Source: Planctomycetota bacterium
GTDB lineage: Bacteria > Planctomycetota > Planctomycetia > Planctomycetales > Planctomycetaceae
Reading direction: 5' to 3'
Assembly: GCA_031424595.1 (NCBI GenBank)
Contig: JANPHT010000712.1
Span: 2,572-66,571, forward strand
DNA: 64,000 nt
Part shown: positions 11,624 through 54,095 of the stretch, one piece after another
Numbering within the stretch: position 1 is the first letter of the stretch
Layout: each line of letters opens with the position of its first letter
Position numbers and translations under genes: made by a program
The notes under the pieces: model-generated
What the model saw: the letters and a program-made list of their open reading frames with translations, nothing else
Told to the model about the DNA's origin: nothing
Databases searched by the model: none

Positions 11624-12504
11624 CGCTGCCGCTCCCGCATGCGGAAGAACTTCTGCAGGCTTTGAGCGTACGGCTGGTCGGTGCGAATCTCCAATCGGTC
11701 CACGTTCGCACGACGCAATGAGCTGGTCAGAGTCTTTTCACGGTCGGCCGCAGCCTTTGCGAACAAGGCTCGCACTTGCGGGTGGCGAGTATCCAGTTCC
11801 AGCAACTCGTCCGTTTCGGCATCGCGGAGAGTCAGAAATCCCACGTCGGGCAAAACAGACTCGCGAGGATCCTGTAACGTCACTGCCACACAATCATGCC
11901 TCTGATTGGCAACGGCAAGAGCCTTCGAGCAATCCGGCCCTAAAAAATCGCTCATCAGAAACACCACGCAACGTCGCCGTTGAACCCGTGAAAGATACTC
12001 CAGTGCTTTTGTGATGTCAGTCTCAGCCTTGATCGGTTCGGTGGCCAGCAACTCCCGAATCAGTCGCAACACATTGCCACGTCCTTTTCGAGGTGGAATG
12101 TACCTGATCACATCGTTGGCAAAGAACAGCAGACCGACTTTGTCATTGTTCTTAAGGGAAGTAAACATCAACACAGCAGCGACTTCAACGGCCGTTTCCA
12201 TCTTTGTCAAGCGCTGCGAGCCGAACGCACCCGAGGCGGAAATATCCACGGCCAGTAAAACAGTGAGTTCACGTTCTTCACAAAACGTCTTCACATAGGG
12301 AGCGCTGGAACGAGCAGTGACATTCCAGTCGATGCTGCGAATTTCATCACCGGGAACGTACTCACGCACCGAATCGAACTCCATTCCGCGACCTTTGAAC
12401 GCACTGAGGTACTCACCGGCCAGAAGATCGTTCACTTGTCGGCGAGCCACGATCTGAATACGGCGGACTTCCTTCAGAACTTCTTCAAGTTCGCGAGTGG
12501 CCAT
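11620..12504 (-). CDS. DUF58 domain protein (VWA-like, MoxR partner); start moved from 12618 to ATG 12504
   Basis: MATRELEEVLKEVRRIQIVARR..., FKGRGMEFDSVREYVPGDEIRSIDWNVTARS, LLAVDISASG. This is the classic DUF58 pattern. Confidence 0.85.
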   Translation of the reverse strand: MATRELEEVLKEVRRIQIVARRQVNDLLAGEYLSAFKGRGMEFDSVREYVPGDEIRSIDWNVTARSSAPYVKTFCEERELTVLLAVDISASGAFGSQRLTKMETAVEVAAVLMFTSLKNNDKVGLLFFANDVIRYIPPRKGRGNVLRLIRELLATEPIKAETDITKALEYLSRVQRRRCVVFLMSDFLGPDCSKALAVANQRHDCVAVTLQDPRESVLPDVGFLTLRDAETDELLELDTRHPQVRALFAKAAADREKTLTSSLRRANVDRLEIRTDQPYAQSLQKFFRMRERQR

Positions 12505-12625
12505 GAGAATGTCTGTCGTACTGGGTGTGTGGTGAGTAATAAAACCTGTGCAACGGCAAGCCACAGTCGAACACGTTGTGTGGATATCAGCAAGCGCGAA
12601 CAGCAACAACCTGGTCAAACTCGGG

Positions 12626-12683
12626 CGTTCTGAAAACGGCGTCAGAACGTGCCCTTTTCCGAACGTGCCCTTTTCCGAACGTG
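12626..12683. repeat. 8-bp-stem hairpin (12626-12649) overlapping by 5 nt a 16-bp tandem repeat x2.4 (12645-12683), in the moxR-DUF58 spacer
   Basis: CGTTCTGA-aaacggcg-TCAGAACG is a perfect inverted repeat. The unit GAACGTGCCCTTTTCC occurs at 12645-12660 and 12661-12676, then partially at 12677-12683. Confidence 0.8.
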
Positions 12684-12691
12684 ACAGCGCG

Positions 12692-13681
12692 CTAGGGAAC
12701 GGGCACCGATTCCAGCACTCTGCGGACTATGTCATCCGACGTCATCTCTTCGGCTTCCGCCTCGTACGTCAATATGATGCGGTGTCGCAGGATTTCGAAA
12801 GCGATATCCTTCACATCCTGAGGCGTCACATAACCTCGCCCAGCCAGAAAGGCGTTCGCCCTGGCGGCGAGACATAGATTGATGGACGCTCGCGGAGACG
12901 CTCCGCATTGAATCAGGGGCTTCAGATCTTTCAGCCGAAACTCTTCGGGCCGACGAGTTGCTGCGACCACGTCCAGAACATAGTCCTTCACTTTGTCGTC
13001 CATGTAGATAGATGAAACCGTCTGTTTGATTTCCACCAACTGCGACGGTTCCAGCACAGGCTGAATCTCGCGTCGAACATCATCCAGTACCGCATCGACA
13101 ACTTTTCGCTCTTCGACCTTCGTGGGATAGCCAACGACCACCTTCAGCATAAAACGGTCTACCTGAGCTTCCGGCAGCGGATAAGTCCCCTCCTGCTCAA
13201 TCGGATTCTGCGTCGCAAGAACCAGAAACGGCTCTTCCAGCAGATAGGTCTCATCGCCAATCGTGACCTGATGCTCCTGCATCGCCTCCAGCAGAGCCGA
13301 CTGCACCTTGGAAGGCGCTCGATTGATTTCATCGGCCAGCACGAGATTCGCAAAGATCGGTCCCTTGCGAGTCCCAAACGATCCTTCGCGAGGATTGTAG
13401 ATCATCGTCCCGATCAGGTCGGCAGGAAGCAGGTCCGGCGTAAACTGTATCCGATTAAACTTGCAGCGAATTGCGCTCGCGAGTGCCTTAATCGCCGTCG
13501 TCTTGGCGAGCCCCGGCAATCCTTCCAGCAACACATGCCCGCCGGTCAGAAGTGCAATCAGCAGACGGGAAAGCATCGCGTCCTGGCCAACCAGCACCTT
13601 GCGGACTTCCGCTCGGACTCGCTCAATTTGATCGGAATACTTGAGAACCTGTTCTTTGATTTTTTGGACATCGACGGACAT
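12692..13681 (-). CDS. MoxR-family AAA+ ATPase
   Basis: Walker A LEGLPGLAKT and Walker B LVLADEINRA. The 329-aa length and the following DUF58 gene are typical of MoxR operons. Confidence 0.93.
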   Translation of the reverse strand: MSVDVQKIKEQVLKYSDQIERVRAEVRKVLVGQDAMLSRLLIALLTGGHVLLEGLPGLAKTTAIKALASAIRCKFNRIQFTPDLLPADLIGTMIYNPREGSFGTRKGPIFANLVLADEINRAPSKVQSALLEAMQEHQVTIGDETYLLEEPFLVLATQNPIEQEGTYPLPEAQVDRFMLKVVVGYPTKVEERKVVDAVLDDVRREIQPVLEPSQLVEIKQTVSSIYMDDKVKDYVLDVVAATRRPEEFRLKDLKPLIQCGASPRASINLCLAARANAFLAGRGYVTPQDVKDIAFEILRHRIILTYEAEAEEMTSDDIVRRVLESVPVP

Positions 13682-29569: not shown

Positions 29570-32500
29570 TTATGGGAACAGGACGCCGTTGATTTCAATG
29601 GTTCCGACGGATGAATTAGCCGGGATGATGAACGGATCTTCGATAAAGTTGTTCCCGTTGAAACCGTTGGAGATAATCGCCATGTTGTTTTGAGTTCCGG
29701 CGATATTGATAACTCCACCGACCTGAGTGAACACGAAGCCTCGCTCTTCGGCTCCACCGAGGTCACGGAACTCGACCGTATTGCGGGACATCTGGATAAA
29801 GGAGTTTGATGCAACCCTTCGAATCTCGATGCCGGTTCCGCCGTCATTCTCAGCACGAATCGCGTTGTTGTCGAAAGCAATGTCCGACAGTTCACGCAGG
29901 TTCATGAAGAAGCCTGTGGGTGTCACACCGGACATACGAACGGAGTTTCGGGCGATCTGGAAAACGTCATCATTGCTGAAAGCTGCTCCAAACAGATCGA
30001 CTATCATCACCCCCGCATCGTTACCCAGATTGTTGACAACAATCTCGTTGCCCTGGAATGACAACTCCGTCAGCACATCCCCTGTGATTCGATTTGTCAG
30101 GTCAAATGCATGTTGCTGCTCGATGCCACGCAAATCGATACGCCTGTTGTTATCCACCTGAACTCGAGCGGCCCCGAACCATTCCATCGTAATGGCATCG
30201 TCGAACAAGGGACGAGTGTCGTTCGGGTTGTTTGTAGTCGGATCAACGGTATCGTTAACTTCGAAGCTGTTGGAGAAAATTCTTGTTCGAATCGCTGCTC
30301 CCTGGGCCACCGCTGAAGACTGGAAGAGGCGAAGGACGTCACCCGAGTTGGAGACGAATCCGCTGTTCTCAATCAGCACTTCGAACGGACGATCGGCTCG
30401 ACTGTATTCTTTCGGATTGGTGTCGGTCGTTGCCGGATCCACGTCTGTATTGACGGAATAGGTGAGAAGAATGGTCTCTCTTCCGACATCCAGATCGTCA
30501 CCGTTGTTGTCAAAATCTGTATTCTGCACTTCCAGCCCCATCAGATCCTCCGCATGGATGCCGCGGATGTCAGAATCGATGACCTGAGAGTCGATAATTC
30601 GGAAGTACTGTTCGTCATTGGCGTTCACGACATCCGTGGGACTCTCTGTATTCACGATGCGGACGCCAAATTCGTTGTCATCAAGAATGACGTCTGTAAC
30701 CGTGACCTGTCCGGCATTCTGCAGAAAGATACCAGCCGCATCATTGTCGTCCAGGAGATTGCCGTCGGCATCAGAAATAACGCCCCCGGAACCCGGGGTG
30801 GCATTCGCAACGTTGGGCTTCAGCAGGAACGTTTTCTTCTGATCTACGTTGGTATTGACCAGACGAATGCCATAATCCGGCGATCCATTACTGTTCACAG
30901 TTTCAAGGTGAATGTTGATTCCGCTGTCTTCAATGTCGACGGCCGCCGCACCACTTGTATCAATCTGACCATCGTCAATACTGATCTCATTGTTGTTGAG
31001 GCCAAACACACCGATTCCGTTCAACGACTCAATATCCATATCGATGATTCGAACCAAACCGATTGGATCGCCTGTCACCGCATCGATTCCGGTGTTGTTC
31101 TCAAGGTGCAGACCAGCACCGCCACCGGCATTGCCCTGTGCGTTCACCACCACTGCATTGCTGAGGCGAACAGTGCCGGAATTGCCAAGAATCTCAATCG
31201 CAGCCGATTGTGAGTTCAACTCGTTCTGCACTTCAGTTCGATCAACAGAAGCCTGGCCAAGTTCGATCAGACCTGATGAATTATTGACCGAAATCCCTTC
31301 CAGTGTTCGATTGGTAACCATGGTAACGCCCTGGAAACGCACTTCTCCACTGATGTTGTCAATGAAGATAGATTCTCGAAGCGTTTGATCAACGTTCACA
31401 TTGTTCTGAAACAGAACTTCGCTGTTCACAAGATTATTGGCAATGAAAATTCCGTTGCCCTGGCTGGGTTGTGCGGCTGGTCCCAGCCCGACAGTGACGG
31501 TATCGGCAAAGATGACCTGACTGTTTGCCAACTGGTCATGAATCGAAATACCAGCCTCCGTGCCAGCGCCCGCGTGATCTCGAACAGTGACCGTATCGGA
31601 GAACCGTACCGTGCCAGAAGAGCCGGCTATCTCAATACCACCCGCCTGGCGACCTTCAACCAATAGTGGATCAATGAATGTGACATCGCCTGTAACATTC
31701 TGAATCAGCACACCCTGAAGCAGCGGATTCGAGATTGTCGTTGCCGCAAGTCGCGGGTCTGATTTTCGGATAACGTAGTCGCCACCGCTGTTGATAATCG
31801 CGATGCCCGTGCCGCCACTATTAGAAACGGAGATATTATCCAGAGCCGCCGTTCCGCCCGTGTTGTTCTGAATGACCACGCCAAGACCGCCGTCATCCGT
31901 AATTGACGAGCGATTCATGGAGAAACGCCCACCAGTCATGTTTTCAACCAGCAGCGATTCGACAGGGGCCGTGTTTGTGATTGAGCCCAGCAGAAAATCG
32001 TCCGTCGATGCAAAATTGATAATGCCGTTACCCCCGTTGATGTGGAGGGACGGCGCCGCAGATGTGGTGGAAACTATCGACGTGTTGGTAATATTGACTG
32101 TACCGTTGGTGTTTTGAAGCAGAATGCCGGATTGACCTGCATTGATCACACTGGTGTCGTTAATAACGAAACCCTCAGCTCCATTGCTGAAGATGCCGTT
32201 CTGCAACGGTGTATTGATGACAAAGCCAGAGAGCAGCGAGTCATTGCCCATTGTCACACCGTTTCCGGCAGCGCCGGTCAGCGTTGGGCGCGCGAGTCCG
32301 GGGGACGCCGCAAAGGTCGGTGAATCGGGCAACGTCAATTGGAATGTCTGACCGAGAATCTGCAACGGAATCTGTGTTTCGACGTTTCGACCAGGAGAGA
32401 TCAGACCTTCGCCGATCAGTTGCTGACCGGGTAACAGCGAGACGATATTCTGTGGTGCAGCATTGAACGTGCTTCCCGCATGGACGAAAACGATATCGGC

Positions 32501-33586
32501 ACCAGCGGCAAGGCCCTGAGTCATCAGCAAGAATGGATCTTCGACTGTTCCTGACCCCGGCCCAACTCCATTGCTGTTGACGTGTGCTATTGTCAACGGA
32601 GCGCCGCCTTGTTGTGCAATCTGGCCGGGCGCCTGAACGCTCGACGTCAGTGCCACAACGTTCATGTTACGGCGAACCGGATCACGAAATCGCTGAATCG
32701 CGGAGCGGCTGGTATGCTCCTGGCTCGAAAAACCGCCAAAGTAGACGGCCACATTAAAGCTGAGGGTCGTGTCATACTGCTGATCGTCAGTGAGCTTCAA
32801 ACCTAGTTCCAGCCACTTTCCGATGTCAGCCTGCAGGCGAGACGACCAACCAGCGAATCCCTCGATGCTATTGCCTTCATAATAGTATCCGCCACCAAAC
32901 GCACGCAGATCGATCCGTTCGGCCAGCTTTCCCGGAAGCAGAAAGCCCAGTTCAGAATCGAACCCCTTCAGGCCTTCAGCCACCGTATCGACACGGGTAA
33001 AAGAAATATTCGAACCGGAAAAGGCGACGCTATTCTGATCGATGCCCTGTCCCACAAGCTCAAACGTATTTCCAAACGTCTGGTAGTAGTTTCCTCGAGC
33101 CTCCCAGCGATTCGACAACAATTCCGCACCCACGCTCCACTGCTGCAGACCGGCACCTGATAACTCATCGTGATCATAGTAACCGTTGCCACCCAGGACG
33201 ACGTCAAGACCTTCGATGTAATGGCGGTAACCGCCCCCAAAAGTGTATCCTAGTCCGCCCTGGTTGGCCCGCAGCATGCGGGCATCTCCAAAGAGCAACC
33301 CATTCTCGATATTCACGTACGGCATCAGGTTGATGTGCGTAATTGATTCATTTCGACCGACTGAACTGCCGGCCATATGTCCGCCTCGGAACGACATCCC
33401 AAGGCCGTCCCTATTGGAATCGACGACCTCGGATGCTGAACCCGTGGGAGTTCGTCCAAAGGAAAAAGCGCCGTCCTGGGAAAATGCTGACTGAGTGCCC
33501 ATCGCCAATGAAATCAGCGCGGCAGCCCGGGACAGTTTTTTCAGCCAGCGATTGGGGTTTCGAACGATCTTCATGACGTTCCTCAA
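29570..33586 (-). CDS. Inverse-autotransporter (intimin/invasin-type) beta-barrel protein with a parallel beta-helix repeat passenger of about 1000 residues
   Basis: Signal peptide ending AFSQ. Residues about 60-310 show the IAT beta-domain pattern (GGGYRHY..., GGNGYYDHD..., LQQWSVGAELLSNRWEARGNYY, LKGFDSELGFLLP, FGGGYYYEG, LSFNVAVYFGG). The rest is made of PbH1-like repeats (GGTGIAIINSGGDYVI, QGVLIQNVTGDVTF, GGIEIAGSSGTVRF and others). Confidence 0.75.
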   Translation of the reverse strand: MRNVMKIVRNPNRWLKKLSRAAALISLAMGTQSAFSQDGAFSFGRTPTGSASEVVDSNRDGLGMSFRGGHMAGSSVGRNESITHINLMPYVNIENGLLFGDARMLRANQGGLGYTFGGGYRHYIEGLDVVLGGNGYYDHDELSGAGLQQWSVGAELLSNRWEARGNYYQTFGNTFELVGQGIDQNSVAFSGSNISFTRVDTVAEGLKGFDSELGFLLPGKLAERIDLRAFGGGYYYEGNSIEGFAGWSSRLQADIGKWLELGLKLTDDQQYDTTLSFNVAVYFGGFSSQEHTSRSAIQRFRDPVRRNMNVVALTSSVQAPGQIAQQGGAPLTIAHVNSNGVGPGSGTVEDPFLLMTQGLAAGADIVFVHAGSTFNAAPQNIVSLLPGQQLIGEGLISPGRNVETQIPLQILGQTFQLTLPDSPTFAASPGLARPTLTGAAGNGVTMGNDSLLSGFVINTPLQNGIFSNGAEGFVINDTSVINAGQSGILLQNTNGTVNITNTSIVSTTSAAPSLHINGGNGIINFASTDDFLLGSITNTAPVESLLVENMTGGRFSMNRSSITDDGGLGVVIQNNTGGTAALDNISVSNSGGTGIAIINSGGDYVIRKSDPRLAATTISNPLLQGVLIQNVTGDVTFIDPLLVEGRQAGGIEIAGSSGTVRFSDTVTVRDHAGAGTEAGISIHDQLANSQVIFADTVTVGLGPAAQPSQGNGIFIANNLVNSEVLFQNNVNVDQTLRESIFIDNISGEVRFQGVTMVTNRTLEGISVNNSSGLIELGQASVDRTEVQNELNSQSAAIEILGNSGTVRLSNAVVVNAQGNAGGGAGLHLENNTGIDAVTGDPIGLVRIIDMDIESLNGIGVFGLNNNEISIDDGQIDTSGAAAVDIEDSGINIHLETVNSNGSPDYGIRLVNTNVDQKKTFLLKPNVANATPGSGGVISDADGNLLDDNDAAGIFLQNAGQVTVTDVILDDNEFGVRIVNTESPTDVVNANDEQYFRIIDSQVIDSDIRGIHAEDLMGLEVQNTDFDNNGDDLDVGRETILLTYSVNTDVDPATTDTNPKEYSRADRPFEVLIENSGFVSNSGDVLRLFQSSAVAQGAAIRTRIFSNSFEVNDTVDPTTNNPNDTRPLFDDAITMEWFGAARVQVDNNRRIDLRGIEQQHAFDLTNRITGDVLTELSFQGNEIVVNNLGNDAGVMIVDLFGAAFSNDDVFQIARNSVRMSGVTPTGFFMNLRELSDIAFDNNAIRAENDGGTGIEIRRVASNSFIQMSRNTVEFRDLGGAEERGFVFTQVGGVINIAGTQNNMAIISNGFNGNNFIEDPFIIPANSSVGTIEINGVLFP

Positions 33587-33643: not shown

Positions 33644-34306
33644 CTCCCGTTCACTTTTCTCTCGTGAGCTTTCAGAAGACTTCCGAACGTCTTGTTCGAA
33701 ACACAATCCACTGGCAGCCGGTTTCAGCAGATGCGCAACATCCCAAGGGACATAGCTTCTCCGCCTGGAGAGACGCGGCGTTTGTAACTGCCTCCGAAAA
33801 CACCAGCAACAGGGCTTCAGGGACTCAGACCGTCAATTTTCTGAACAGGCGACAAGCGGTGGTGATGCTCCTGCGAAAAGCACTCTATGGGCGCTACGGC
33901 GCGGCAGCTTTCGCCTGTTTTGGTGAATCTCCTGCCTCGCCACCATTTCCAATTAAGTGTACGTATGAACCCGTATCTGCTGTGGCGATCTGTGCGCCGT
34001 TCAATCCCCAGAGGAGAAAATAGGGATCACCGGGCTTCTGCGAAGAACACTGAAACCCCTGAACACTTGAAAACAGCAATATTCTGAATCGTTTCAAAAG
34101 AAATCTGGCCAATTGACCGAGTGTCACGAATCCTTTTCCCCGGCCTGTTGTTTCTACATTTTGTCCGAGAAACACATCCCCCAGTCGAATTAACAGCAGA
34201 AGACTCCAGGGGAATTCTGGGGATTTTTGGTTTCTCCTTCTCGATTGCTGTCGGAATACTTCTTATGAATTTTGCTCAATGGTTTCAGTCGGTTTGTGGC
34301 TTAAGG

Positions 34307-36244
34307 ATGTCCTTGCGAATTCTTATCGTTGGCTTCATGACGATTGGACTTTTCGGATCGGCCGCCGTTGGTAGTCCGCAGTCAAAAACCGACGCCGATC
34401 AGAAAACAACCGATGAAAAACCTTTGACTCTCGTCGCGGAGGGCTCTCGGCCACTGCTCACGATCACGTTTGCAAATGCTGATCGGTTCGTGGGTGCCGC
34501 TCGATACATTTTTGACGCCGCTGGTAAGCCGGAAGCATTTGAAGTGTTTGAAGGGTTTCTTGCAAACACTCTGAATAACCTCGAAGGCTTCAATCGATCC
34601 AAGCCTTTCGGCGTCATGGCCTATCTGCCTGTCGCGTTTCCTCCAGCCCCGGAATTCATTGCTTTCGTTCCCATCGATTCTGTCGAGGCGGCAACGAAGC
34701 TGATCGAAAAAGCGCCCGTGGTCATTCGACAGGACGATGAAGAAGGAAGATATGAAGTCATCGGTCCGAATAGGACTTTCCCGGTTCTGATGCGTGACGG
34801 ATATGCGTTCATGCCGCTCGGAAATAGTCCTCCGGAAGAAGCTCTTGATCGGGAGTTACCGGATCCCTCTTTGTTGCTTGCCAGCCAGGCCCAACAGTTT
34901 GACGTGGCGGTGCGACTGGACGTTGAATCCATTCCAGTGGCCACTCGAACGCTGCTGATGGGGTTGATTTCTTCAGGAATTTCTACAACTCTGCAACAAC
35001 GTGATGGTGAGCCACAAGGCGCCTATCTCATTCGCAGAACAGAAGGGGAACGCGGGCTGGAGGCTCTGCGAATGCTGATTACAGAATGCCAGAAGATCAC
35101 GTTTGGCGTGAAAGTCGATCAGGAAGAACAGGCTGTGAATATCGACGTTTTGGTCGACGCACTGGACGGTTCAAAGTTCATGAAAGAGATTTTCCAGTCG
35201 ACTGAGAAACCAAGTTACTTCATTCCCCTTCTGGACGACGATGCCGCAGTTTCACTCTCGATGTCTTCCATGATGGCTGATCGCGACAGGACGGCCTACA
35301 TCGAAATGATGGAAGGCGTAAAAATGGAAGTAAGTCGATTGATTGACGAGAACAAGCTGGGACCTGCACCCGACGAAAACAGTCCCATTGGCCAGGCGCT
35401 GTCGGCGATCCAGAAGACTCTTGAAGAGGGGCACGTGGACGTGTTTGCCCAATTCTACCGGGACTCGTCCGGCAAACTGGCCATCGTCTGGGCCGGGCGT
35501 ATTCTTGAAGGTGATGCTATCGCCGCCGGCATTCTTGATGCTGCCACTCGACTTCAGAATGTTGACGACATCAAGAAAGCCGGGGATCTGCAGATCGGGG
35601 CCGCCGAACATCTGGGAATCACCTTTCATCGACTGACTTTCGCCGCACAAGCGCCCGAAGCGGTCGCCGTGTTTGGTGACGGTGTTGGGCTGACGATTGG
35701 TGTCGGTTCAACCGCAGTCTGGGGCGTCCTTGGAGGTGAAGAATCTCTCGCGACCCTGACGGGGGTCATGGATAGCCTTGAAGAGGCAATTCAATCGCCT
35801 GCCGAACGAAAGATGCCGCCAAATTTCCGAGTCATTGTCAATGTGAATCAACTCGTCGAAATGGCCACAATTGCTGAGACCGCCGGATCAAAGGCTCGGG
35901 CAGAAAAAGAACAGGCCGCAGCCGCTCTTGATTCGGCAAAAGCCGAATTGGAAACTCCGAAGGCCACCGTGGAGCCAGCAACTCAAAATGCAGAAGGAGG
36001 ACGCAATGCCGCCGGCCGTCGTGCAGAGTTTGCTCGACGCCGTGAACGAGGCGGATCGATTATGCGAGAAACGCTGGCTGAGGGCGACGATCGTATTGAA
36101 GTGGACTCTCGCCTGACCGAGACCGGCGCTCGAATGAGGATTCGACTCGAAGAAGGATTCGTGAAAATCTTCGGACGATTGCTTGCCGAACGGCTGGCAC
36201 CACAGGAACAGCCAGTTCCCGTTGATATCTCGCCTCGTCAATAG
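34307..36244 (+). CDS. Hypothetical secreted protein (no recognised domain); start moved from 34121 to ATG 34307
   Basis: MSLRILIVGFMTIGLFGSAAVG signal peptide preceded by AAGG. A long ORF with normal amino-acid composition, a C-terminal Ala/Glu/Lys/Arg-rich helical segment, and a strong terminator after it. Confidence 0.65.
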   Translation: MSLRILIVGFMTIGLFGSAAVGSPQSKTDADQKTTDEKPLTLVAEGSRPLLTITFANADRFVGAARYIFDAAGKPEAFEVFEGFLANTLNNLEGFNRSKPFGVMAYLPVAFPPAPEFIAFVPIDSVEAATKLIEKAPVVIRQDDEEGRYEVIGPNRTFPVLMRDGYAFMPLGNSPPEEALDRELPDPSLLLASQAQQFDVAVRLDVESIPVATRTLLMGLISSGISTTLQQRDGEPQGAYLIRRTEGERGLEALRMLITECQKITFGVKVDQEEQAVNIDVLVDALDGSKFMKEIFQSTEKPSYFIPLLDDDAAVSLSMSSMMADRDRTAYIEMMEGVKMEVSRLIDENKLGPAPDENSPIGQALSAIQKTLEEGHVDVFAQFYRDSSGKLAIVWAGRILEGDAIAAGILDAATRLQNVDDIKKAGDLQIGAAEHLGITFHRLTFAAQAPEAVAVFGDGVGLTIGVGSTAVWGVLGGEESLATLTGVMDSLEEAIQSPAERKMPPNFRVIVNVNQLVEMATIAETAGSKARAEKEQAAAALDSAKAELETPKATVEPATQNAEGGRNAAGRRAEFARRRERGGSIMRETLAEGDDRIEVDSRLTETGARMRIRLEEGFVKIFGRLLAERLAPQEQPVPVDISPRQ

Positions 36245-45443: not shown

Positions 45444-46598
45444 TTACTGTGCTGTCGACTTACTGCCACTCGGTGAGCCTACAATTGGAGTTCCTGCTGG
45501 AAGCGGACGAGCAGCGACGCGAAGTTGCAAACCATGAGCGACCTCACGCAAAGCTGCGAATCCTTTGAAGGAATCCGGGTAGATCCACATCGTTACCACC
45601 GTGTCGGGAACTGCGGTTTCGATTCCCTGGCGATACCGCGAACCTGGTCTAATGGCTTCGTCGAAAGTTTCATCGACCAATGATTCAACTGGTTCAATCG
45701 TCCAGCGAGACACATTGACTCGCGTTCTGCCATCGCCGGATTGCAGGGCTTCCAGGGTCGAGGGGCCTTCTTTTTCCACAGTGTAGGTCATTGTGTAACC
45801 ATTCACCGGGCCAACGGTCCCTTCGAACTGATTGAAACGCATCACGGTTGTGCTGCGACTCCTGACCTGAGCCTTCAGTCGCTCCAGAAGTTGGTCCAGA
45901 GGCACCTGGCTGATGCGCCCATTGCTGATCCGGAAGTGCAATTCGTCTTTCTCCACAGGCTTCGTGACGGGCGAAAGTCTGTGCTGCATCACGTCTCTGG
46001 GGACTGCAGCCTGCTTTGTTTCCTCAAGGACTTCCTTCAGCCGCTGTGTTTCAATCACGGTCGTGCGGAGCTCTTCATCCAAATCCTGTTCGGCGATTAT
46101 GGCTGTAGCAAGCACTTGTCCAACCTGGCGGGCTTTTTCACCCTTTTCGTCGATTGCTTTCTGAAGTGAAACCACGCGAGTTTCCAATGCCGCGCGATCG
46201 GACTCAAGGTCTGTGACCTGCTTTTGCATTCGACTCGACTTTTCCCGCTGTGCCGCCAACTGCTGCCGCTCAAGCTCCTGCTCTTCCATCGTTTTCTGGA
46301 TCTGCTGCTGAGCCCGTTCGCTATCTGACTGAAGTGACTTCAACTTTTGCGACAATTGTACTTCCGACTCCTGCAACTTCCCCAATGTCTGCTGCCTGCT
46401 GGCCATTTCTGAGGCCTGATGGACTCTTTGGGCCTGCGCCTCAGAAGTAACATCGCTAAATCCCACTTTGGGCTGTCGATCGACCTTCACTCCGACAACG
46501 ACAATGAGAATGATTAAAATGCCGACGATGTTGCAGACGACATCAAGAAACGAGTCGGAACCAAATTCAAGTTCGGGTCTTTGTGCACGTCGGCTCAT
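45444..46598 (-). CDS. Single-pass membrane protein: ExbD/TolR-like TM helix (Asp retained), coiled coil of about 150 residues, C-terminal globular domain (gene 3 of the MotA-like operon)
   Basis: SFLDVVCNIVGILIILIVVV resembles the ExbD TM (E. coli TPFIDVMLVLLIIFMV), with Asp19. Residues about 50-200 are heptad-like and Q/E/K/L/S-rich. The C-terminal ELHFRISNGRISQVP...VVTMWIYPDSFKGFAALREVAHGLQLRV is ExbD-domain-like. Confidence 0.7.
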   Translation of the reverse strand: MSRRAQRPELEFGSDSFLDVVCNIVGILIILIVVVGVKVDRQPKVGFSDVTSEAQAQRVHQASEMASRQQTLGKLQESEVQLSQKLKSLQSDSERAQQQIQKTMEEQELERQQLAAQREKSSRMQKQVTDLESDRAALETRVVSLQKAIDEKGEKARQVGQVLATAIIAEQDLDEELRTTVIETQRLKEVLEETKQAAVPRDVMQHRLSPVTKPVEKDELHFRISNGRISQVPLDQLLERLKAQVRSRSTTVMRFNQFEGTVGPVNGYTMTYTVEKEGPSTLEALQSGDGRTRVNVSRWTIEPVESLVDETFDEAIRPGSRYRQGIETAVPDTVVTMWIYPDSFKGFAALREVAHGLQLRVAARPLPAGTPIVGSPSGSKSTAQ

Positions 46599-46717
46599 GA
46601 TAGTTTCTGTGAGTTGGTCAGATCTCGATCAGTTGTTGTTCTGAGATACAAGGAGTTGCAATTCGTCCCAGGTGACCTCTCCGGCAGATACGATGACTCT
46701 GCGGAGAGAAGCCCTGG

Positions 46718-48760
46718 CTACAGTTGCTCATCGTTCTCCAGCCGGGCTCTTCCTGTTTCATCACTTTTGGTCATGTACGGCGTCAATTCATAGACCGTTG
46801 CCGATCGAATGCCCGTTCGTTTGAGAGAGTGAGCCAGCGGAATTCGCCACTTTTCACCACCTGGGCTGACAATGAATTTTACGATCGGCATGATGGGCTC
46901 ATGCGGATTCCGTTTTGTGTCATCGACTTCCGTGTTAATGCCCGTCAGCAACGTAGCAAACACTGCGTCAAGTGTTTCGGGAGTCACTTCCACGGAAGGC
47001 TGTTGTGCAACTGTCATATGATGTTCATCAAGAAAAACCGTGATCCCAATCGGAGTGGCCTGACTACTGGACTGGCTCTTCCCGGAACCAAGCCTCCTGA
47101 GCAGGTCAGGGTCAATCTTTGACAGATCCGGAATTCCGGTCGAGGGTTTCCCACCTTCCTCACCGGCAAATAACAGGCTGTCCGGTTGACGGCCCGTCTT
47201 CGATTTTTCAGTAGTCCCGGGAACTTCGGAAGCTGACGATTGCGATTTTGAATCACTTGCCAGAACCGATGAGACTGGCCAATCGGACTCCTTGGTTGCT
47301 TCTCTGGACTTTGCCGCCCGCATCCGTCCATCACTGCCAAACAGGGATTCTGCAAATCTTCGTTCACCAGGAGATCTTAAAACGTCAGCACTGGAACCAT
47401 TCACAGTCTCTGCCAGACTTTCCTGAGGTGGCTCTTCGGCGGCCGCAGTCGGAGACGCTTGACGTCTGGCATAACGTTCTGCAAATTCGTCGGCCAGTTT
47501 TTCAGCGTCCTCGGCTGTCATTCGATCCGGATTAAGTCCTGAGTATCCGCCAGCAGGTCGGTTTTGAAAGTGGGAACGTGGAGGTGCAACACCTCCAGCG
47601 TAAAACCGTCCATCCAGCGGTCTCGACTCCACGCCTTCGTTCATCAGAACTCGACCGTCCGGACGAACCGTCAATCGACGCTCGGCCGGTGATTTTCCAG
47701 GCCCGCCTGATTCCTGCAATCCTGATTTCTGTTGAGCAATGGCCATCAGTTTCGCATAGAGATTTTCGCGTCGGGTCAATGCCTCCCGAATCGAAGCCTG
47801 AATGGCGGGGGTTTCGGTTGGATCCGGTTCGCCAGCAACGACTCTATGATCTGACTCGAGCAACTCGTATCCGAAATGAATATGCGAATCAGTCAGAATC
47901 TTCTGTGCCCCATAAAACGCGAGGGATCCATCAGGGCGAACCAGTAAGAGCACATAGGGTTCTGCTGTGACGGAGTTCCCTGAGCGAAGCCGATGCGTGG
48001 TGAGAATGGCCGACAGCAACGGATTGTCCCGGATCGGAAATCCTTCCATTTCCGCAGCGGAGATCCGAATACCGTTTGGAAGAAGCTCAAAGCCGCTCGC
48101 GGAAACGTCAATCACTAGAGGAGTTCGAGTGGTACCAGTTGAATTGGAGAATTCGAGTAAGGTCGACGTTCCGGAAATCGTCTTCAGCTGTTTCGTCGCT
48201 TCCTCGACCTGGGCGCGAAGGCTGATCAGGTCAGAGTGCTTTTTCTGCAATACAAGAGAGGCGTCTTTCGAAGCTTCCTCGGCCTGGACGAGTTGCTGCT
48301 GTTTATCAAACAGCTGCTTCTCGGAATCTTTAAGTTGCCTTAATAAGGCTGCCTCTTTTGCTTTGAGTTGTCTCGACTCAGTCAACGAGCGTGTGACCGT
48401 GGTCTGAGTTTCGTCGCCACTTTCTTCAGGTTTGCTTTGGAGACTCTTCAGTTCTTCCTGCAGGCTGGCAATCGTGGCCTGATTCTCTATCACGCTGGCG
48501 CTGAGAGCCACTGCGTTGGACTGCATTGCCAAAACGTTGTCTTGTGCCGACTTGATCTTCGCTTCCAGATCTGCAATCTCAGAACTGTGATCCGGTTCCG
48601 CAGGCACAGAGGCAACAACGGTCGCGTGTTCAATGAGCTGATCCTGTCGCATTTTTCGTGTCATCACGAGCAGCAGCAGAATCAATGACCCCATGGCGCA
48701 GACGAGCACGGCCAGAAATGGGAACAGCGAGATAGAATTGTGGTGCTGTTTCCGAGCCAT
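46718..48760 (-). CDS. Single-pass membrane protein: ExbD-like TM helix with Ala in place of Asp, coiled coil, two ExbD-like globular domains separated by a disordered linker (gene 2 of the MotA-like operon)
   Basis: ISLFPFLAVLVCAMGSLILLLLV TM; coiled coil at aa about 55-200. The first globular region is PLVIDVSASGFELLPNGIRI...PYVLLLVRPDGSLAFYGAQKIL. An S/P/E/G-rich linker spans aa about 395-560. The second region is IGITVFLDEHHMTVAQQ...PIVKFIVSPGGEKWRIPLAHSLKRTGI. Confidence 0.7.
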   Translation of the reverse strand: MARKQHHNSISLFPFLAVLVCAMGSLILLLLVMTRKMRQDQLIEHATVVASVPAEPDHSSEIADLEAKIKSAQDNVLAMQSNAVALSASVIENQATIASLQEELKSLQSKPEESGDETQTTVTRSLTESRQLKAKEAALLRQLKDSEKQLFDKQQQLVQAEEASKDASLVLQKKHSDLISLRAQVEEATKQLKTISGTSTLLEFSNSTGTTRTPLVIDVSASGFELLPNGIRISAAEMEGFPIRDNPLLSAILTTHRLRSGNSVTAEPYVLLLVRPDGSLAFYGAQKILTDSHIHFGYELLESDHRVVAGEPDPTETPAIQASIREALTRRENLYAKLMAIAQQKSGLQESGGPGKSPAERRLTVRPDGRVLMNEGVESRPLDGRFYAGGVAPPRSHFQNRPAGGYSGLNPDRMTAEDAEKLADEFAERYARRQASPTAAAEEPPQESLAETVNGSSADVLRSPGERRFAESLFGSDGRMRAAKSREATKESDWPVSSVLASDSKSQSSASEVPGTTEKSKTGRQPDSLLFAGEEGGKPSTGIPDLSKIDPDLLRRLGSGKSQSSSQATPIGITVFLDEHHMTVAQQPSVEVTPETLDAVFATLLTGINTEVDDTKRNPHEPIMPIVKFIVSPGGEKWRIPLAHSLKRTGIRSATVYELTPYMTKSDETGRARLENDEQL

Positions 48761-48832
48761 GAACGTTCAATCTGCCCCGTCGTTGGATGAGCTCTTGTGC
48801 ATCGCCTGCATGACCTCGTCTGTTCGAAAACC

Positions 48833-50215
48833 TTAAGCCACAGCTCTGAGAGCCGTTTTTGCCGTCAGGACATTCACCGCGGCGTTAAGGCTGTTCACTG
48901 TCTGTTCCAGCGTTTCCACAACCTGAAGGGTCTGGAGGTTCTTGTTCAGCTGATCCTGAAGATGAATGAGTCGTTCTTCAGACTCGGTCATCTGCAACAG
49001 AGTCCGTCCGAGACGATGCAACTCCTCCGCCTGACCTGCTGATGAAAGCGTCGTCTCTTTCATAGCACTTTGCCAGGCGTCAACTCGTTCGACGAACGAC
49101 AGTAGCGTTGACTGCATTTGTTCCGTAAAGGTCTGAGTGCTTTGTTGCAGTGATTTCGCGTAGAGATCGCGAGAAAACTCGACGCTCTCACGATGAACCT
49201 GAAGAGTCTGGTGAGTCTCCTGTCCCAATGCCTGAGCCAGTGAGTCCGTTTGCTGAGTGAGCGACTCAGCCCATCCGCTTTGCAGGGACATCAGGTGACG
49301 ATTCCAGAACTCCGTCTGTTGAGCCAGCATTTGCGAGGTCCAGTCTGACAGGGCTGGAATTCCCATCGTCTGGTGGCTGGCGGATTCTGTTGTCAGCGAG
49401 GGAACAAGGTGGTCAATTCCCAGTTGTTCAATTTCATTGAGAATGTTCTGCTCGCCGCGCTCGACAAGGAAGGTTCCAAAAACCAGCAGCATCGACATCC
49501 CGAGTGCCTGAGCCGTTGTGTCGAAGGCCACGGCAAGGCCGGATGTTACCTCGGGAAGTGATGAATCCAGTTGTTCGGGAGTCACATTGGCAATGGCCAT
49601 GGTGATGCCCACAACGGTACCAAGAAAACCCATGATCGGAACGGCCCAGGTGACTGTGCGAATCAGCGAGTAGCTCTGAAGCAAACGATCCGATGCGAGA
49701 TCCGCAAGATATCTCAGATGATCTTCCAGTCCGCTGCCATCCGGGCGATTGCCGACGTAATGCAGGACATCATTGAGTCGCTGTCCGACGGTCGTGGCGG
49801 CAAGTTTATTTGTACGTGATTTTTTCTGCCAGACTCTCAAGCCGGTTACAACTTCAGCAGAAGCAGAGCCTCCCATTGACCAGGAACCCTCTTGAGCCAA
49901 CTCAAGCAGCGACCTCAGGGCCCTGCGTTCGACCGGCAATGATTTTAGTTTAGCCCACAGTATTCCCATCCCCACGAAGAACATCCCCGACGTAATGTAC
50001 TCAAGAGGATGTCCGCAGAAGTATCGCTGGACGAACTCCGGCCCTCCAGGGAAAGGTTTCGCGGCCCATGGTGCCACAATGTAAAAAACCACTGTGACAC
50101 CAAGTCCCAGCAACATTCCTGCCACCGTCGATGACCGAGATTGTCGCTGTGATGGCACCGAAGACACGGACTCCGGAGTCCCGGACGATTGTGGCGTTGG
50201 GTGATCTTTGGGCAC
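48833..50215 (-). CDS. MotA/TolQ/ExbB-family proton-channel protein with MotA-like four-TM topology and a C-terminal helical tail of about 190 residues (gene 1 of the operon)
   Basis: WAVPIMGFLGTVVGITMAI...SGLAVAFDTTAQALGMSMLLVFGTFLV matches the MotA_ExbB core (G-x-x-GTV-x-GI ... G-I/L-A-x-A-x-x-T-T-A-x-G-L). There are two N-terminal TM helices and a loop of about 100 residues before TM3. The tail after TM4 is Q/T/S/E/L-rich. Confidence 0.8.
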   Translation of the reverse strand: MPKDHPTPQSSGTPESVSSVPSQRQSRSSTVAGMLLGLGVTVVFYIVAPWAAKPFPGGPEFVQRYFCGHPLEYITSGMFFVGMGILWAKLKSLPVERRALRSLLELAQEGSWSMGGSASAEVVTGLRVWQKKSRTNKLAATTVGQRLNDVLHYVGNRPDGSGLEDHLRYLADLASDRLLQSYSLIRTVTWAVPIMGFLGTVVGITMAIANVTPEQLDSSLPEVTSGLAVAFDTTAQALGMSMLLVFGTFLVERGEQNILNEIEQLGIDHLVPSLTTESASHQTMGIPALSDWTSQMLAQQTEFWNRHLMSLQSGWAESLTQQTDSLAQALGQETHQTLQVHRESVEFSRDLYAKSLQQSTQTFTEQMQSTLLSFVERVDAWQSAMKETTLSSAGQAEELHRLGRTLLQMTESEERLIHLQDQLNKNLQTLQVVETLEQTVNSLNAAVNVLTAKTALRAVA

Positions 50216-51967: not shown

Positions 51968-52687
51968 TTAATCCTTCTTTTGCATTTGCATGCGTCGTTT
52001 GAATACCTCTTCAAACTCGAATGGATTGATGCTGCCGTCTTTGTTGACGTCGGCTGAGCGGATGTTTTCTCTCATTCGGGCTGGAATCTCTTCTCCCGAA
52101 AGCTTTCCGTCAGCGTCGCGATCCAGTTGACTAAACACATTTCCAGACAGCAGCTGATCCGAATTCTTGCTTTTTTCGTCCCTGCGACCTGGTGCTGTGG
52201 CCGGCTTCATTTCGGGCACTTTCGTCATACCAGGTTTTTCTGCTGAGTTCGCATCAGGACTCTCTCCTCGAAGAAACCCCTGAACCTTGTCCACAGGAAT
52301 ACTCGCCTGTCCACTCCGCTCAAGTAGTTGCTTAAAGCGGTCCTTCAACGGTGCTGGCACTTCGTCAATGGATATGTTTCCATCACCATTTCTATCGAGC
52401 ATCCGGGGATCAAATCCATTCATCCGACCAGAAAGACTGGCAGCCGGAAGTTCGATCGGCTTTGGATCGGAGACCGCCCGAGAGAATTCCTCAGCAGTCA
52501 GTGCACTGTCGTCATTCTTGTCCGCAACTCGCAATGCACGCTGGAAGAAAGTTTTCTGTGTCGAGTTCAGTTCATCGTCGGTTAGAATGAAATCGCCGTT
52601 CTTGTCCAGCTTTTTAAAAAGTTCGCCTGAGGTAGTGCCGTCGGGCAAAACGACCAACATTGCCGAGAGCAACAACGAAGAACTCAT
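51968..52687 (-). CDS. Secreted EF-hand calcium-binding protein (four EF loops); start moved from 53062 to ATG 52687
   Basis: DKNGDFILTDDE, DRNGDGNISIDE, DRDADGKLSGEE, DVNKDGSINPFE. The ORF-track N-terminal 125 codons overlap ribD antisense and look non-protein-like. Confidence 0.8.
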   Translation of the reverse strand: MSSSLLLSAMLVVLPDGTTSGELFKKLDKNGDFILTDDELNSTQKTFFQRALRVADKNDDSALTAEEFSRAVSDPKPIELPAASLSGRMNGFDPRMLDRNGDGNISIDEVPAPLKDRFKQLLERSGQASIPVDKVQGFLRGESPDANSAEKPGMTKVPEMKPATAPGRRDEKSKNSDQLLSGNVFSQLDRDADGKLSGEEIPARMRENIRSADVNKDGSINPFEFEEVFKRRMQMQKKD

Positions 52688-52988
52688 CAGTACGATCCTT
52701 GTGTTTGGCGGTGTCCGGCGCTGATCGATTATGACCTTCAGCCGCTTGCCCTTATCAAAGCTGTGCAATTCTGCGGTGCTGTCGATTATAACACCGTCGT
52801 GGAACCTCCGGATCGGCGGATTTGCCCGAATTTGACCAAACGCGAAACGTTTACTTCGAGGTTGCTGGCGTTTCTGAAGTTGGCACCATGTTGTCGTGGC
52901 TGATCCGCAGGCGTGATGCGAGAATCCGAGTCTCTTTAATCCGTGAAAGACCGTAGTCGTGCAAACGTTTGCGTCAGACTCTGACATC

Positions 52989-54095
52989 ATGCTACGGGCG
53001 ATTGACATTGCAAAATCAGGGTTTGGGTTCGTCGAACCAAATCCCATGGTAGGGGCTGTCATCGCTTCTCGGGATCGCGTTCTGATTTCCGAAGGGTTTC
53101 ACCAGAGTTTTGGCGAGGCTCATGCTGAGATCAACGCGATTTGTTCTGCAAAGGACAGAACTCGTGGAGCCGACTTGTTCGTTTCTTTGGAGCCTTGCAG
53201 TCATTTTGGAAAAACACCACCCTGTGCTGACGCTGTCATCGCCGCCGGATTTCGCCGCGTCGTTGTTGGTTGCCAGGATCCGGCACCACATGTCGCCGGT
53301 GCGGGCATCCAGAGGATTCGTGACGCGGGAATTCAGGTTGACGTCGGCGTTTGTGAGAGACAGGCCAGACGACTCATTGCTCCGTTTGAAAAGCTGATGC
53401 TCAATCGGGTTCCCTGGGTCCACGCAAAATGGGCGATGACACTAGATGGTCGCATTGCTTCGAGGACCGGGCATTCGCAATGGATTTCCTGCGAACAATC
53501 TCGCAAGTGGGTGCATGACCTTCGAGGCCGCGTTGATGCCATCATTACAGGATCCGGCACGGTCCGTGCCGATAATCCTCAGCTCACTGCTCGCCTCGCT
53601 GGACCTCGCAGAGCGTTAAGAGTAGTCATCGATTCTACCGGGGACAGCGTAAATGCCGATGGCGCACTATTAAAGTCACGGTTAGATTCGGAGATCCTCG
53701 TGTGTGTGTCAGGGCGATGCCGTAAGGAATCGCGAGATCGGCTGCTGAATCTGGGTGTATCCGTATTCCAGACGGAGTCCGCTGCTAAGGTCGATGTCGC
53801 GGCTGTTATGCGGGAACTGGGGCTTCGAAAATGTACGAATGTGCTTTTGGAAGCTGGCCCCGCTCTACTGGGCGCATTCTTCGACGAGGGCCTGATCGAT
53901 GAGATTCATGCGTTCGTCGCGCCAAAGCTGATCGGTGGTTTGGGCTCACTCGCACCGATCGGAGGTGCAGGGTTTGCAACGATTCCTGCCCAGCCAAATT
54001 GTGAGTCTCTGAGTTCAAGAAAGATAGGCGATGACCTCTTGATTGAGGCTGACGTTTCGCGGAAGTCAACGTCCGCGGACTTGCAACACGGGTGA
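52989..54095 (+). CDS. ribD: Bifunctional riboflavin biosynthesis protein RibD (deaminase/reductase)
   Basis: MLRAIDIAKSGFGFVEPNPMVGAVI, HAEINA, SLEPCSHFGKTPPC, and the C-terminal reductase region GSGTVRADNPQLT. Confidence 0.95.
   Translation: MLRAIDIAKSGFGFVEPNPMVGAVIASRDRVLISEGFHQSFGEAHAEINAICSAKDRTRGADLFVSLEPCSHFGKTPPCADAVIAAGFRRVVVGCQDPAPHVAGAGIQRIRDAGIQVDVGVCERQARRLIAPFEKLMLNRVPWVHAKWAMTLDGRIASRTGHSQWISCEQSRKWVHDLRGRVDAIITGSGTVRADNPQLTARLAGPRRALRVVIDSTGDSVNADGALLKSRLDSEILVCVSGRCRKESRDRLLNLGVSVFQTESAAKVDVAAVMRELGLRKCTNVLLEAGPALLGAFFDEGLIDEIHAFVAPKLIGGLGSLAPIGGAGFATIPAQPNCESLSSRKIGDDLLIEADVSRKSTSADLQHG

Follow-up and report, generated by a model that had tools for sequence, protein, structure and literature searches.

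Three consecutive genes on the minus strand

The window, by which is meant the whole stretch of DNA analyzed here, comprises 64,000 nucleotides (nt) from a Planctomycetota bacterium (assembly GCA_031424595.1, contig JANPHT010000712.1, positions 2,572 to 66,571 of the forward strand). All coordinates are numbered from its first nucleotide. It contains three consecutive minus-strand open reading frames (ORFs), termed g1, g2 and g3, separated by intergenic gaps of 72 and 119 nt. They belong to an uncharacterized family, a lineage-specific variant of the MotA/ExbB type that has a tail on its ring and an unprecedented pairing of B-type paralogues with coiled coils. The genes are as follows, with lengths in amino acids (aa):

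48833–50215, minus strand: g1, 460 aa, GTG start; MotA/TolQ/ExbB-type channel subunit
46718–48760, minus strand: g2, 680 aa; paralogue of g3
45444–46598, minus strand: g3, 384 aa; candidate B-type subunit, in the role of ExbD, TolR and MotB

The coordinates were re-derived, giving the same three co-directional genes and the same gaps as the initial annotation, which had been made from the sequence alone. Identical DNA in public metagenome assemblies carries the same gene calls (460, 680 and 384 aa). The G+C content of the region (∼0.53) is equal to that of the rest of the window. The trio lies between coaC/coaB and a GH15-like gene, as previously described and seen again on a Pfam scan. It had also been stated that no recognizable output partner is present. 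This is in agreement with Pfam scans of essentially all ORFs of at least 90 aa, in which no gene for TonB, TolA, TolB, Pal, an OmpA-like protein, flagella, the type IX secretion system (T9SS) or ZorC/D was found in the window. A canonical ExbD or TolR is absent from both the window and 83 related loci on searching with the Escherichia coli proteins (phmmer). No Rfam family matches the locus at an expectation value (E) of ≤1, and the counts of promoter and terminator signals are not above those of shuffled controls.

The channel subunit and its C-terminal tail

The principal elements of g1 are the channel core, containing the third and fourth transmembrane (TM) helices, and the tail that follows it:

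49427–49747, minus strand: MotA_ExbB core (residues 157–263), comprising TM3, the periplasmic loop and TM4, with invariant PIMGFLGTVxGIT and AFDTTAQAL
48836–49420, minus strand: C-terminal tail (residues 266–460), helical and conserved, extending ∼195 residues past TM4; probably cytoplasmic

Residues 157–263 match the Pfam family MotA_ExbB (PF01618) with E 9.3e-11 and 42 bits, against a gathering score of 22.9. There are more than 1000 homologues of g1, and the domain is present in 120/120 of those listed. A profile constructed from 51 homologues aligns with E. coli ExbB (hhalign probability 88%, E 3e-6) over TM2, the cytoplasmic domain and TM3–TM4, and with the Pfam score this upholds the earlier description of g1 as MotA/ExbB-like. 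In the alignment GFLGTVVGIT of g1, with the invariant T200, lies opposite GLFGTVWGI of ExbB (T148), and AFDTTAQAL, with the invariant T233 and T234, lies opposite LLATAIGL (T181). The equivalent threonines of ExbB and TolQ line the proton path. Conservation of the core is 0.82–0.89 across 60 loci.

The hydrophobicity profile has three strong segments and a weaker one at residues 73–90, which is placed opposite TM1 of ExbB; one hydrophobic helix, at 30–48, lies upstream of the latter. The MotA-like topology with four TM helices that was proposed initially is plausible on this basis. g1 falls below the cutoff of each NCBIfam equivalog with which it was compared, scoring 21.1 versus 221 bits for TolQ, 13–15 versus 135–206 for ExbB and 14.6 versus 700 for ZorA2. 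Judged by these scores g1 is a member of the PF01618 superfamily lying outside every named subfamily.

The tail was not mentioned in the initial annotation. Because the C termini of MotA, ExbB and ZorA are cytoplasmic, it is placed in the cytoplasm. Residues W304, W315, H341, W381, Q395, E397, H400 and G403 are invariant, and the final ∼75 residues are the most conserved section, close to the conservation of the cytoplasmic core. The length is fixed by clade, with 204–213 residues after E252 in the clade of the window and 246–263 in the Planctopirus/Schlesneria clade. Heptad periodicity is modest (z 2.0–2.5). The tail may be no less important than the periplasmic stalk discussed below.

In PADLOC g1 is matched best by ZorA2 (E 4.3e-10), over a stretch that reaches into the tail as far as residue 399. 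PADLOC gave only ZorA-type matches, attributable to the shared channel domain, and identification as a defence system was rejected. For residues 390–448 (48872–49048), the most conserved part of the tail, the best sequence match in the PDB is the cytoplasmic C-terminal region of PorL/GldL (7sat_C, residues 165–219). This is the only non-generic match and is reproduced with both a single sequence and a profile, with an E of 0.02–0.04 that is not significant. Two pairs of DNA repeats with a spacing of 276 nt had raised the possibility of a 92-residue internal repeat in the tail. There is no corresponding repeat in the protein (z 0.7, hhalign E >0.1), and the pairs were discounted as chance.

g3 carries a conserved aspartate in its TM helix

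In the AlphaFold2 (AF2) model of g3 (mean predicted local distance difference test (pLDDT) 80) a TM helix (residues 15–39) is followed by a long helix (50–198), a linker and an alpha/beta domain (219–375). The features of the gene are:

46485–46562, minus strand: TM block GSDSFLDVVCNIVGILIILIVVVG (residues 13–38), invariant; carries Asp15 and Asp19
46005–46451, minus strand: coiled-coil helix (residues 50–198), 149 residues without interruption, pLDDT 90–96, ∼22 nm if straight
45474–45944, minus strand: alpha/beta domain (residues 219–375), a conserved orphan fold, pLDDT 75–92
45447–45515, minus strand: C-terminal peptide (residues 362–384), AARPLPxGTPIVGSPxGSxSTAQ, with invariant columns A362–Q384, kept in divergent representatives

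More than 1000 homologues of g3 are among the matches found, and these are without Pfam domains. The most conserved part of the protein is the N-terminal block ExFGSDSFLDVVxNIVGILIILIV. Both D15 and D19 are present in 82/82 loci, and the block is also kept in the most divergent representatives in the databases. It contains the only region that aligns with E. coli ExbD (hhalign), where SFLDVV lies opposite PFIDVM of the sequence TPFIDVM. An acidic residue located eight positions before the motif aspartate (E11 in g3) is common to g3, ExbD and TolR.

The coiled coil has a heptad periodicity 4.2 z units above shuffled sequences and contains no proline. Its sequence is variable, while the C-terminal domain and terminal peptide are almost invariant. 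In the distant relatives P0506, P0413, P0383 and P0440 the TM helix is followed by a Pro/Ala-rich spacer and then by a shorter coil, with the TM block and the C-terminal domain kept. This suggests that the stalk is a spacer of tunable length, as in TonB and many TolA proteins. The head domain of g3 with its invariant C-terminal peptide, and the head domains of g2, are obvious candidates for the binding of a partner.

g2 has largely lost the aspartate and contains a long linker

g2 begins in the same manner as g3 and is considerably longer. The AF2 model (mean pLDDT 72) comprises a TM helix, a coil in two sections (59–116 and 122–195), an alpha/beta domain (212–300), a helix (316–348), a linker and a second alpha/beta domain (569–657):

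48659–48727, minus strand: TM helix LFPFLAVLVCAMGSLILLLLV (residues 12–34), near-invariant, with Ala17 at the position of the aspartate in ExbD, TolR and g3
48176–48586, minus strand: coiled-coil stalk (residues 59–195), 137 residues with a break at 117–121, pLDDT >90
47861–48127, minus strand: first alpha/beta domain (residues 212–300), order β-β-β-α-β-α-β, orphan
47111–47713, minus strand: linker (residues 350–550), rich in Pro, Ser, Gly and Ala, pLDDT <50 over most of its length, with conserved short motifs
46790–47056, minus strand: C-terminal alpha/beta domain (residues 569–657), order β-β-α-β-α-β, orphan, pLDDT ∼90, with an invariant VKFIVSPGGEKWR block

All of the 861 homologues of g2 are without Pfam domains. 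The TM motif aligns with that of E. coli TolR (SEINIVPLLDVL), and the flanking motif FPFLxVL is kept. At the aspartate position the residue is alanine in 68/74 loci and aspartate in the other six (L053, L054, L062, L065, L070 and L079, with FPFLDVL). In L065 and L070 the whole TM helix of g2 resembles that of g3 (GSFLDVLCNMVGILIIL). The six are exactly those loci where g1 lies downstream of g3 (L053 and L079) or where there is none within 10 kb. Since aspartate is confined to loci in which g1 is downstream or non-adjacent, the loss looks derived and then fixed. The aspartate-bearing loci may represent the system in an ancestral form, or in an alternative one. The initial annotation gave both g2 and g3 an ExbD/TolR-type TM helix; each does have a single TM helix with the motif, and the aspartate is present in g3 and mostly replaced by alanine in g2. 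The g2 helix contains neither histidine nor an SHLS pattern. The TM helices of g2 and g3 are both nearly invariant at an overall identity of 30%, a pattern that suits helices buried within a complex of proteins more than plain membrane anchors.

The coil of g2 has a heptad periodicity 2.7 z units above shuffles and includes one proline. The lengths of 137 and 149 residues for g2 and g3 agree with the coiled coils of about 150 residues that were noted initially. Absent from that description was the disordered linker of ∼200 residues, which contains the motifs RRLxVRPDGRV, GRFYAGGVAPP and AEEFAxxYA, with PDLSRIDPDLL at its C-terminal edge; R366, D368, G369, A388–G390, P393–P394 and D550 are invariant. 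The C terminus of g2 has no TonB_C domain or TolA domain III, as judged from Pfam, PDB profiles and the top Foldseek matches.

Sub-threshold matches to Pfam UPF0242 occur in 41/64 g2 homologues (best E 6.9e-6; residues 6–194 of g2). UPF0242 is a chlamydial family having a TM helix and a coiled coil. The similarity could be of composition only, or could reflect a distant relationship extending across the Planctomycetes–Verrucomicrobia–Chlamydiae (PVC) group.

g2 and g3 are paralogues with orphan periplasmic domains

Profiles of g2 and g3 align over the TM helix, the coil and the first strands of the following domain with a probability of 97.4% and E 1e-11 (hhalign), and their hidden Markov models cross-match at ∼1e-10 in every locus. 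The stop codon of g2 overlaps the start of g3 by 4 or 1 nt in 52/76 loci, indicating translational coupling of the two genes; the overlap has been lost in the window's own clade. The stalk segments range from 123 to 222 residues in g2 and from 150 to 224 in g3, and their lengths are correlated (Pearson r = 0.80, Spearman rho = 0.52, n = 73). Several apparently independent expansions and contractions are included in this covariation.

The alpha/beta domains following the coils were described initially as ExbD-like. The domains themselves are present (g3 219–375; g2 212–300 and 569–657), but a relationship to ExbD was dropped because only the TM motif aligns on comparison with E. coli ExbD and TolR (hhalign). 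The Pfam ExbD family (PF02472), proposed as a check on both proteins, gives no match at E ≤1 in 67 g3 and 64 g2 homologues (131 in total). When the first and C-terminal domains of g2 and the C-terminal domain of g3 are taken alone, their profiles match no ExbD, TolR, MotB, TonB or TolA chain in the PDB at E ≤10. Foldseek comparison of the AF2 models with the PDB gives nothing below E 0.015 for g2 or 0.03 for g3, with alignments having root-mean-square deviations >9 Å. TolR (5by4) is ranked 37 for g2 with E 0.13 and is absent from the matches of g3. No OmpA-like peptidoglycan-binding domain is found in g2 or g3 using Pfam, NCBIfam, PDB profiles and Foldseek, and in family databases the two proteins match generic coiled-coil families only.

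The order of strands and helices in the first domain of g2 is compatible with a TolR-like fold. This domain has a weak similarity to the C-terminal domain of g2 (E 0.0017) based upon a recurring strand-P(D/G)G-helix-strand unit. In a three-way homology comparison the domain of g3 is unrelated to both domains of g2. On these comparisons the likeness of g2 and g3 to ExbD is confined to the N-terminal TM motif, and the periplasmic domains appear as orphan folds.

Distribution of the family and its genomic context

A scan using one genome per species identified 141 loci, of which 80 were retrieved; neighbourhood counts are taken over 84 loci. All 80 are from planctomycete bins or isolates except for a few evidently mislabelled bins, and the holders of the trio include Planctopirus hydrillae, Schlesneria sp. 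T3-172, Planctomicrobium spp. and Fuerstiella. Each protein has ∼900–1100 detectable homologues. The named ones are all from Planctomycetaceae or Planctomycetota, and relatives of g2 and g3 are annotated as hypothetical. The family thus appears to be specific to planctomycetes. An exhaustive profile search with g3 gave 706 clusters at 50% identity with E ≤1e-30, the best 150 of which share the architecture.

The order g1-g2-g3 is present in 59/84 loci and g2-g3-g1 in two. In about a dozen, g2-g3 stand without any g1 inside 10 kb, and the rest lie on truncated contigs. The flanking genes are wholly different between lineages, so the synteny proposed from the window holds among divergent Planctomycetaceae with different flanks. 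ORF clustering over 83 loci yielded antisense shadow ORFs and a 1327-aa protein restricted to one clade, and otherwise no fourth gene conserved throughout the family. Neither a TonB-dependent transporter nor tolB or pal is among the conserved neighbours in these loci. The orthologues do not lie beside tonB or tolB-pal, a position that by the initial annotation would have made this only a divergent Tol or Ton system.

The clade-restricted protein adjoins the trio in 15 loci of the Planctopirus/Schlesneria clade and is absent from the window. It is divergently transcribed, of ∼1327 aa and without a Pfam domain:

L046:1969–5952, minus strand: gene for the ∼1327-aa protein; found also in L044, L047–L051, L055, L056, L059, L066–L069 and L083

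In L047–L051 this gene directly abuts g2 and g1 is missing. By position the protein probably corresponds to Plim_1836 of Planctopirus limnophila, for which hits are confined to planctomycetes (31/45). The protein could act with the motor as a cytoplasmic partner peculiar to this clade. Genes encoding HD-GYP or GGDEF-HD proteins of cyclic di-GMP turnover are found near the trio in two or more unrelated contexts (L003:12014–14254; L046:480–1877, corresponding to Plim_1837), and this may be coincidence.

Synteny with the P. hydrillae locus (HD-GYP, the 1327-aa gene, g1, g2, g3, glycerate kinase and purL) leads to Plim_1834, Plim_1833 and Plim_1832 of P. limnophila, which are thereby assigned as the orthologues of g1, g2 and g3, respectively. 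Plim_1834 is annotated as MotA/TolQ/ExbB. In the TraDIS study (sequencing of transposon-directed insertion sites) of Rivas-Marin et al. none of the three genes is essential, the insertion indices being 0.16, 0.12 and 0.12 for Plim_1834, Plim_1833 and Plim_1832 (PMC10632474). The orthologue counts given there are:

Plim_1832: 20/45 Planctomycetes; 20/79 PVC; 0/4655 prokaryotic species (PMC10632474)
Plim_1834: 19/45 Planctomycetes; 19/79 PVC; 2/4655 prokaryotic species (PMC10632474)
Plim_1833: 2/45 Planctomycetes; 2/79 PVC; 0/4655 prokaryotic species (PMC10632474)

As the PVC totals equal the planctomycete counts, there is no hit in a PVC genome outside the planctomycetes. Full-text searching of the literature found no description of the family, and Plim_1832–Plim_1834 occur in no main text. 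A curated family or paper covering g2 or g3 was not found either, whereas the initial annotation could not tell whether the family had already been characterized. A 2025 survey of MotAB relatives contains many uncharacterized ‘generic ion transporters’ and does not address this architecture (PMC12505986). A survey of force transducers from the same year describes a different PVC operon, consisting of TPR, tolQ, two tolR-like and vWA genes (PMC12204202).

The wider window is typical of a planctomycete core chromosome (PSCyt1/PSCyt2/PSD1, DUF1501, sulfatase, DnaK, Mfd, TIM and SecG). Other features observed in it are:

29570–33586, minus strand: 1338-aa ORF having a beta-helix region and a signal for an inverse-autotransporter beta-domain
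34121–36244, plus strand: 707-aa ORF adjoining the preceding one, with no Pfam match
51968–53062, minus strand: 364-aa protein containing several calcium-binding motifs of the EF-hand type (E 2.6e-17), overlapping the start of the ribD ORF (52959–54095, plus strand) by ∼100 nt
10454–13681, minus strand: Bat-like cluster of a MoxR AAA ATPase, a DUF58/vWA gene and an unassigned 389-aa gene; three DUF1501 genes and one PSCyt1/PSCyt2/PSD1 gene lie around it (∼8.9–20.6 kb)

Comparison with known ion-driven systems

With ExbB-ExbD-TonB and TolQ-TolR-TolA the trio shares a PF01618 A subunit having the same threonine-bearing TM2/TM3 motifs, and the organization of the operon. The B-type N-terminal TM helix has its aspartate in the context (E)xxxxxxLDV, and as in those systems there is a third protein, anchored by a TM helix, in which a long spacer across the periplasm leads to a small C-terminal domain. 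However, g1 differs from ExbB and TolQ in its extra N-terminal TM helix, its ∼195-residue tail and scores of 13–21 bits against cutoffs of 135–221. Where ExbD has its fold of ∼140 aa, g3 (384 aa) has a 149-residue coil together with an orphan domain. Unlike TonB or TolA, g2 is a paralogue of g3 and lacks SHLS, and no TonB-dependent transporter, TolB or Pal is linked.

ZorAB likewise has a MotA-family A subunit with a long helical tail, also conserved, beyond the final TM helix (PMC11946911). The peptidoglycan-binding domain of ZorB is directly on the TM helix, whereas here there are coiled coils and orphan domains. The trio is without ZorC/D partners, its tail is much shorter, and it is core-genomic and vertically inherited. 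GldLM/PorLM has a long dimeric shaft spanning the periplasm, of 18 nm in GldM compared with ∼20 nm estimated here (PMC9389320), and an A-type subunit with a cytoplasmic C-terminal region; the match of g1 to that of PorL is marginal and not significant. In contrast, GldL has two TM helices and is not of PF01618, GldM is built from helical and Ig-like domains instead of a coiled coil with alpha/beta domains, and here no T9SS genes are linked.

Two further systems contain a pair of B-type genes. AglR-AglQ-AglS has one MotA/TolQ-like gene followed by two distinct TolR/MotB-like genes, and its two B subunits may likewise form either a hetero- or a homodimer (PMC9389320). AglQ and AglS are short and both retain the aspartate; the paralogues of the trio are long, carry coiled coils and have the aspartate in both at only six loci. 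The PVC TPR-tolQ-tolR-tolR-vWA operons (PMC12204202) also have one tolQ and two tolR genes, but the TPR and vWA genes are absent here. The likeness to MotAB and PomAB lies in a probable A subunit with four TM helices and a TM aspartate in the B subunit near the cytoplasmic end. The trio has no OmpA-like domain, no plug-linker-peptidoglycan-binding domain architecture and no nearby flagellar genes, and the direct match of g1 to MotA is not significant (E 0.3).

DISCUSSION

We consider it rather probable that g1, g2 and g3 form a single proton-driven motor of the 5:2 class in the inner membrane, with a heteromeric g2/g3 periplasmic stalk. The core of the uncharacterized MotA/ExbB-type envelope motor without known partner that was proposed in the initial annotation is therefore retained, without its ExbD-like heads and for the most part without the aspartate in g2, and with the g1 tail and g2 linker that it had not mentioned. 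g1 would form the channel ring, presumed to be pentameric, with the invariant threonines of TM3 and TM4 lining the proton path. Asp19 of g3 would be the proton carrier, the role played in ExbD, TolR and MotB. g2 would be an ancient paralogue of g3 whose TM helix is equally constrained and has lost the aspartate in most lineages. Together g2 and g3 would form a coiled-coil stalk ∼20 nm in length. Well away from the membrane it would bear the flexible linker of g2 as well as the three orphan alpha/beta modules, such that these could engage peptidoglycan or an outer-membrane partner. Proton flow through g1 and g3 would then drive rotation of, or pulling on, a distal target in the envelope, following the logic of Ton/Tol or GldLM rather than that of a flagellar stator or defence sensor.

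A stalk shared by g2 and g3 is favoured for several reasons. The two proteins are paralogous, they are usually translationally coupled and their stalk lengths track. g2 retains the ExbD/TolR-type motif around the lost aspartate. Moreover its TM helix is near-fully invariant, whereas the TM anchors of TonB and TolA conserve only the SHLS motif.

A number of observations weigh against this interpretation. The 5:2 stoichiometry and the pairing of g2 with g3 are inferred. Given that g2 mostly lacks the aspartate, a g2/g3 axle would be asymmetric with a single proton site, and we know of no precedent for such an axle. The linkage of g1 is strong but not absolute, with ∼12 loci lacking an adjacent g1 and two having it downstream. 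The covariation of stalk lengths is inflated by shared ancestry and is supportive rather than conclusive; it would also arise if g2 and g3 separately span the same gap. The periplasmic domains match no known fold, so that the output is not deducible from them. Lastly, the orthologues in P. limnophila are dispensable in the laboratory (PMC10632474).

A more elaborate form of the shared-stalk motor can be put forward tentatively, and we regard it as possible though somewhat unlikely. An asymmetric axle with one aspartate would be combined with a shaft of ∼20 nm tuned to the enlarged planctomycetal periplasm and with the cytoplasmic tail of the ring, linking cytoplasm, inner membrane and outer envelope. 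Such a machine might power a lineage-specific process, for example the uptake of macromolecules via crateriform structures, or fibre and holdfast dynamics.

The most serious alternative, which we think unlikely though by no means negligible, is a Ton/Tol-like arrangement. A g3 homodimer with two Asp19 residues would be the axle within a g1 pentamer, and g2 would be a transducer docked outside the ring. g2 would then be an analogue of TolA or TonB that evolved independently from a TolR-like paralogue, with its linker and C-terminal domain passing force to the outer membrane. The parts of g2 do parallel those of TolA and TonB, with a TM anchor, helical spacer, disordered linker of ∼200 residues and small conserved C-terminal domain, and a subunit relieved of carrying protons would be expected to lose the aspartate, as g2 has in 68/74 loci. 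The divergent g3 relatives that replace part of the coil by Pro/Ala-rich spacers also resemble TonB and many TolA proteins (PMC12204202). Yet the TM helix of g2 has no SHLS or histidine and instead retains FPFL(A/D)VL with almost every position invariant, and there is no signal of TonB_C or TolA domain III from Pfam, PDB profiles or Foldseek. A TonB-dependent transporter, tolB or pal is linked in none of the loci, and the frequent translational coupling of g2 and g3 suggests that the two proteins are made at 1:1 and not at 1:2.

We regard it as improbable that g2 and g3 are simply co-transcribed coiled-coil membrane scaffolds, serving for example cell shape, division by budding or the biogenesis of a stalk or holdfast, with g1 pairing with an unlinked ExbD or TolR. 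The lack of a detectable ExbD domain in either protein, the genomes with g2-g3 and no adjacent g1, and the restriction of database matches to generic coiled-coil families would all be in keeping with this. However, the most conserved part of g3 is the acidic TM motif E11, D15 and D19 (ExFGSDSFLDV), which is the ExbD/TolR pattern, and a buried TM aspartate is hard to explain in a passive anchor. Furthermore, g1 is adjacent in 59 loci and downstream in two more, and there is no canonical ExbD nearby. Least probable of all, to the point of being very doubtful, is a Zorya-like sensor in which the tail of g1 passes a signal from the envelope, for example of phage attack, on to effectors in the cytoplasm, with g2 and g3 serving only as a wall anchor: the ZorA2 match extending into the tail (E 4.3e-10) and the ZorA-like conserved helical tail after TM4 (PMC11946911) are offset by the NCBIfam ZorA2 score of 14.6 bits against a cutoff of 700, the lack of an OmpA-like peptidoglycan-binding domain in g2 and g3, the finding of no ZorC/D/E-like nuclease or helicase or other conserved partner by PADLOC and locus ORF clustering, a tail of ∼195–260 residues compared with a ZorA tail that projects ∼70 nm, and the core-genome location, G+C matching the surroundings and family-wide presence down to 30% identity, which are unlike a patchy defence island.

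The family is not categorically new, since a recognizable PF01618 channel and an ExbD-type aspartate helix are its energizing core, and many uncharacterized relatives of the MotA/ExbB superfamily exist. Nevertheless the known 5:2 motors that are understood are a handful, MotAB, ExbBD, TolQR, GldLM and ZorAB, each of which revealed a new use of the proton gradient outside the cytoplasm. The present family combines features not seen together before: two B-type paralogues of which one lacks the aspartate, long coiled-coil shafts bearing orphan heads, and a Zorya-like tail on the ring. If the axle does have one aspartate, the alternating two-site model of 5:2 rotation could be put to a natural test in this family; if the Ton/Tol-like arrangement is the true one, g2 would be of interest in its own right as an independently evolved analogue of TolA. 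P. limnophila is genetically tractable, and Plim_1834–1832 tolerate transposon insertions, making the family experimentally accessible. It is also large (g3 alone forms 706 clusters or more at 50% identity), and its named members belong to a single phylum in which the biology of the envelope is poorly understood.

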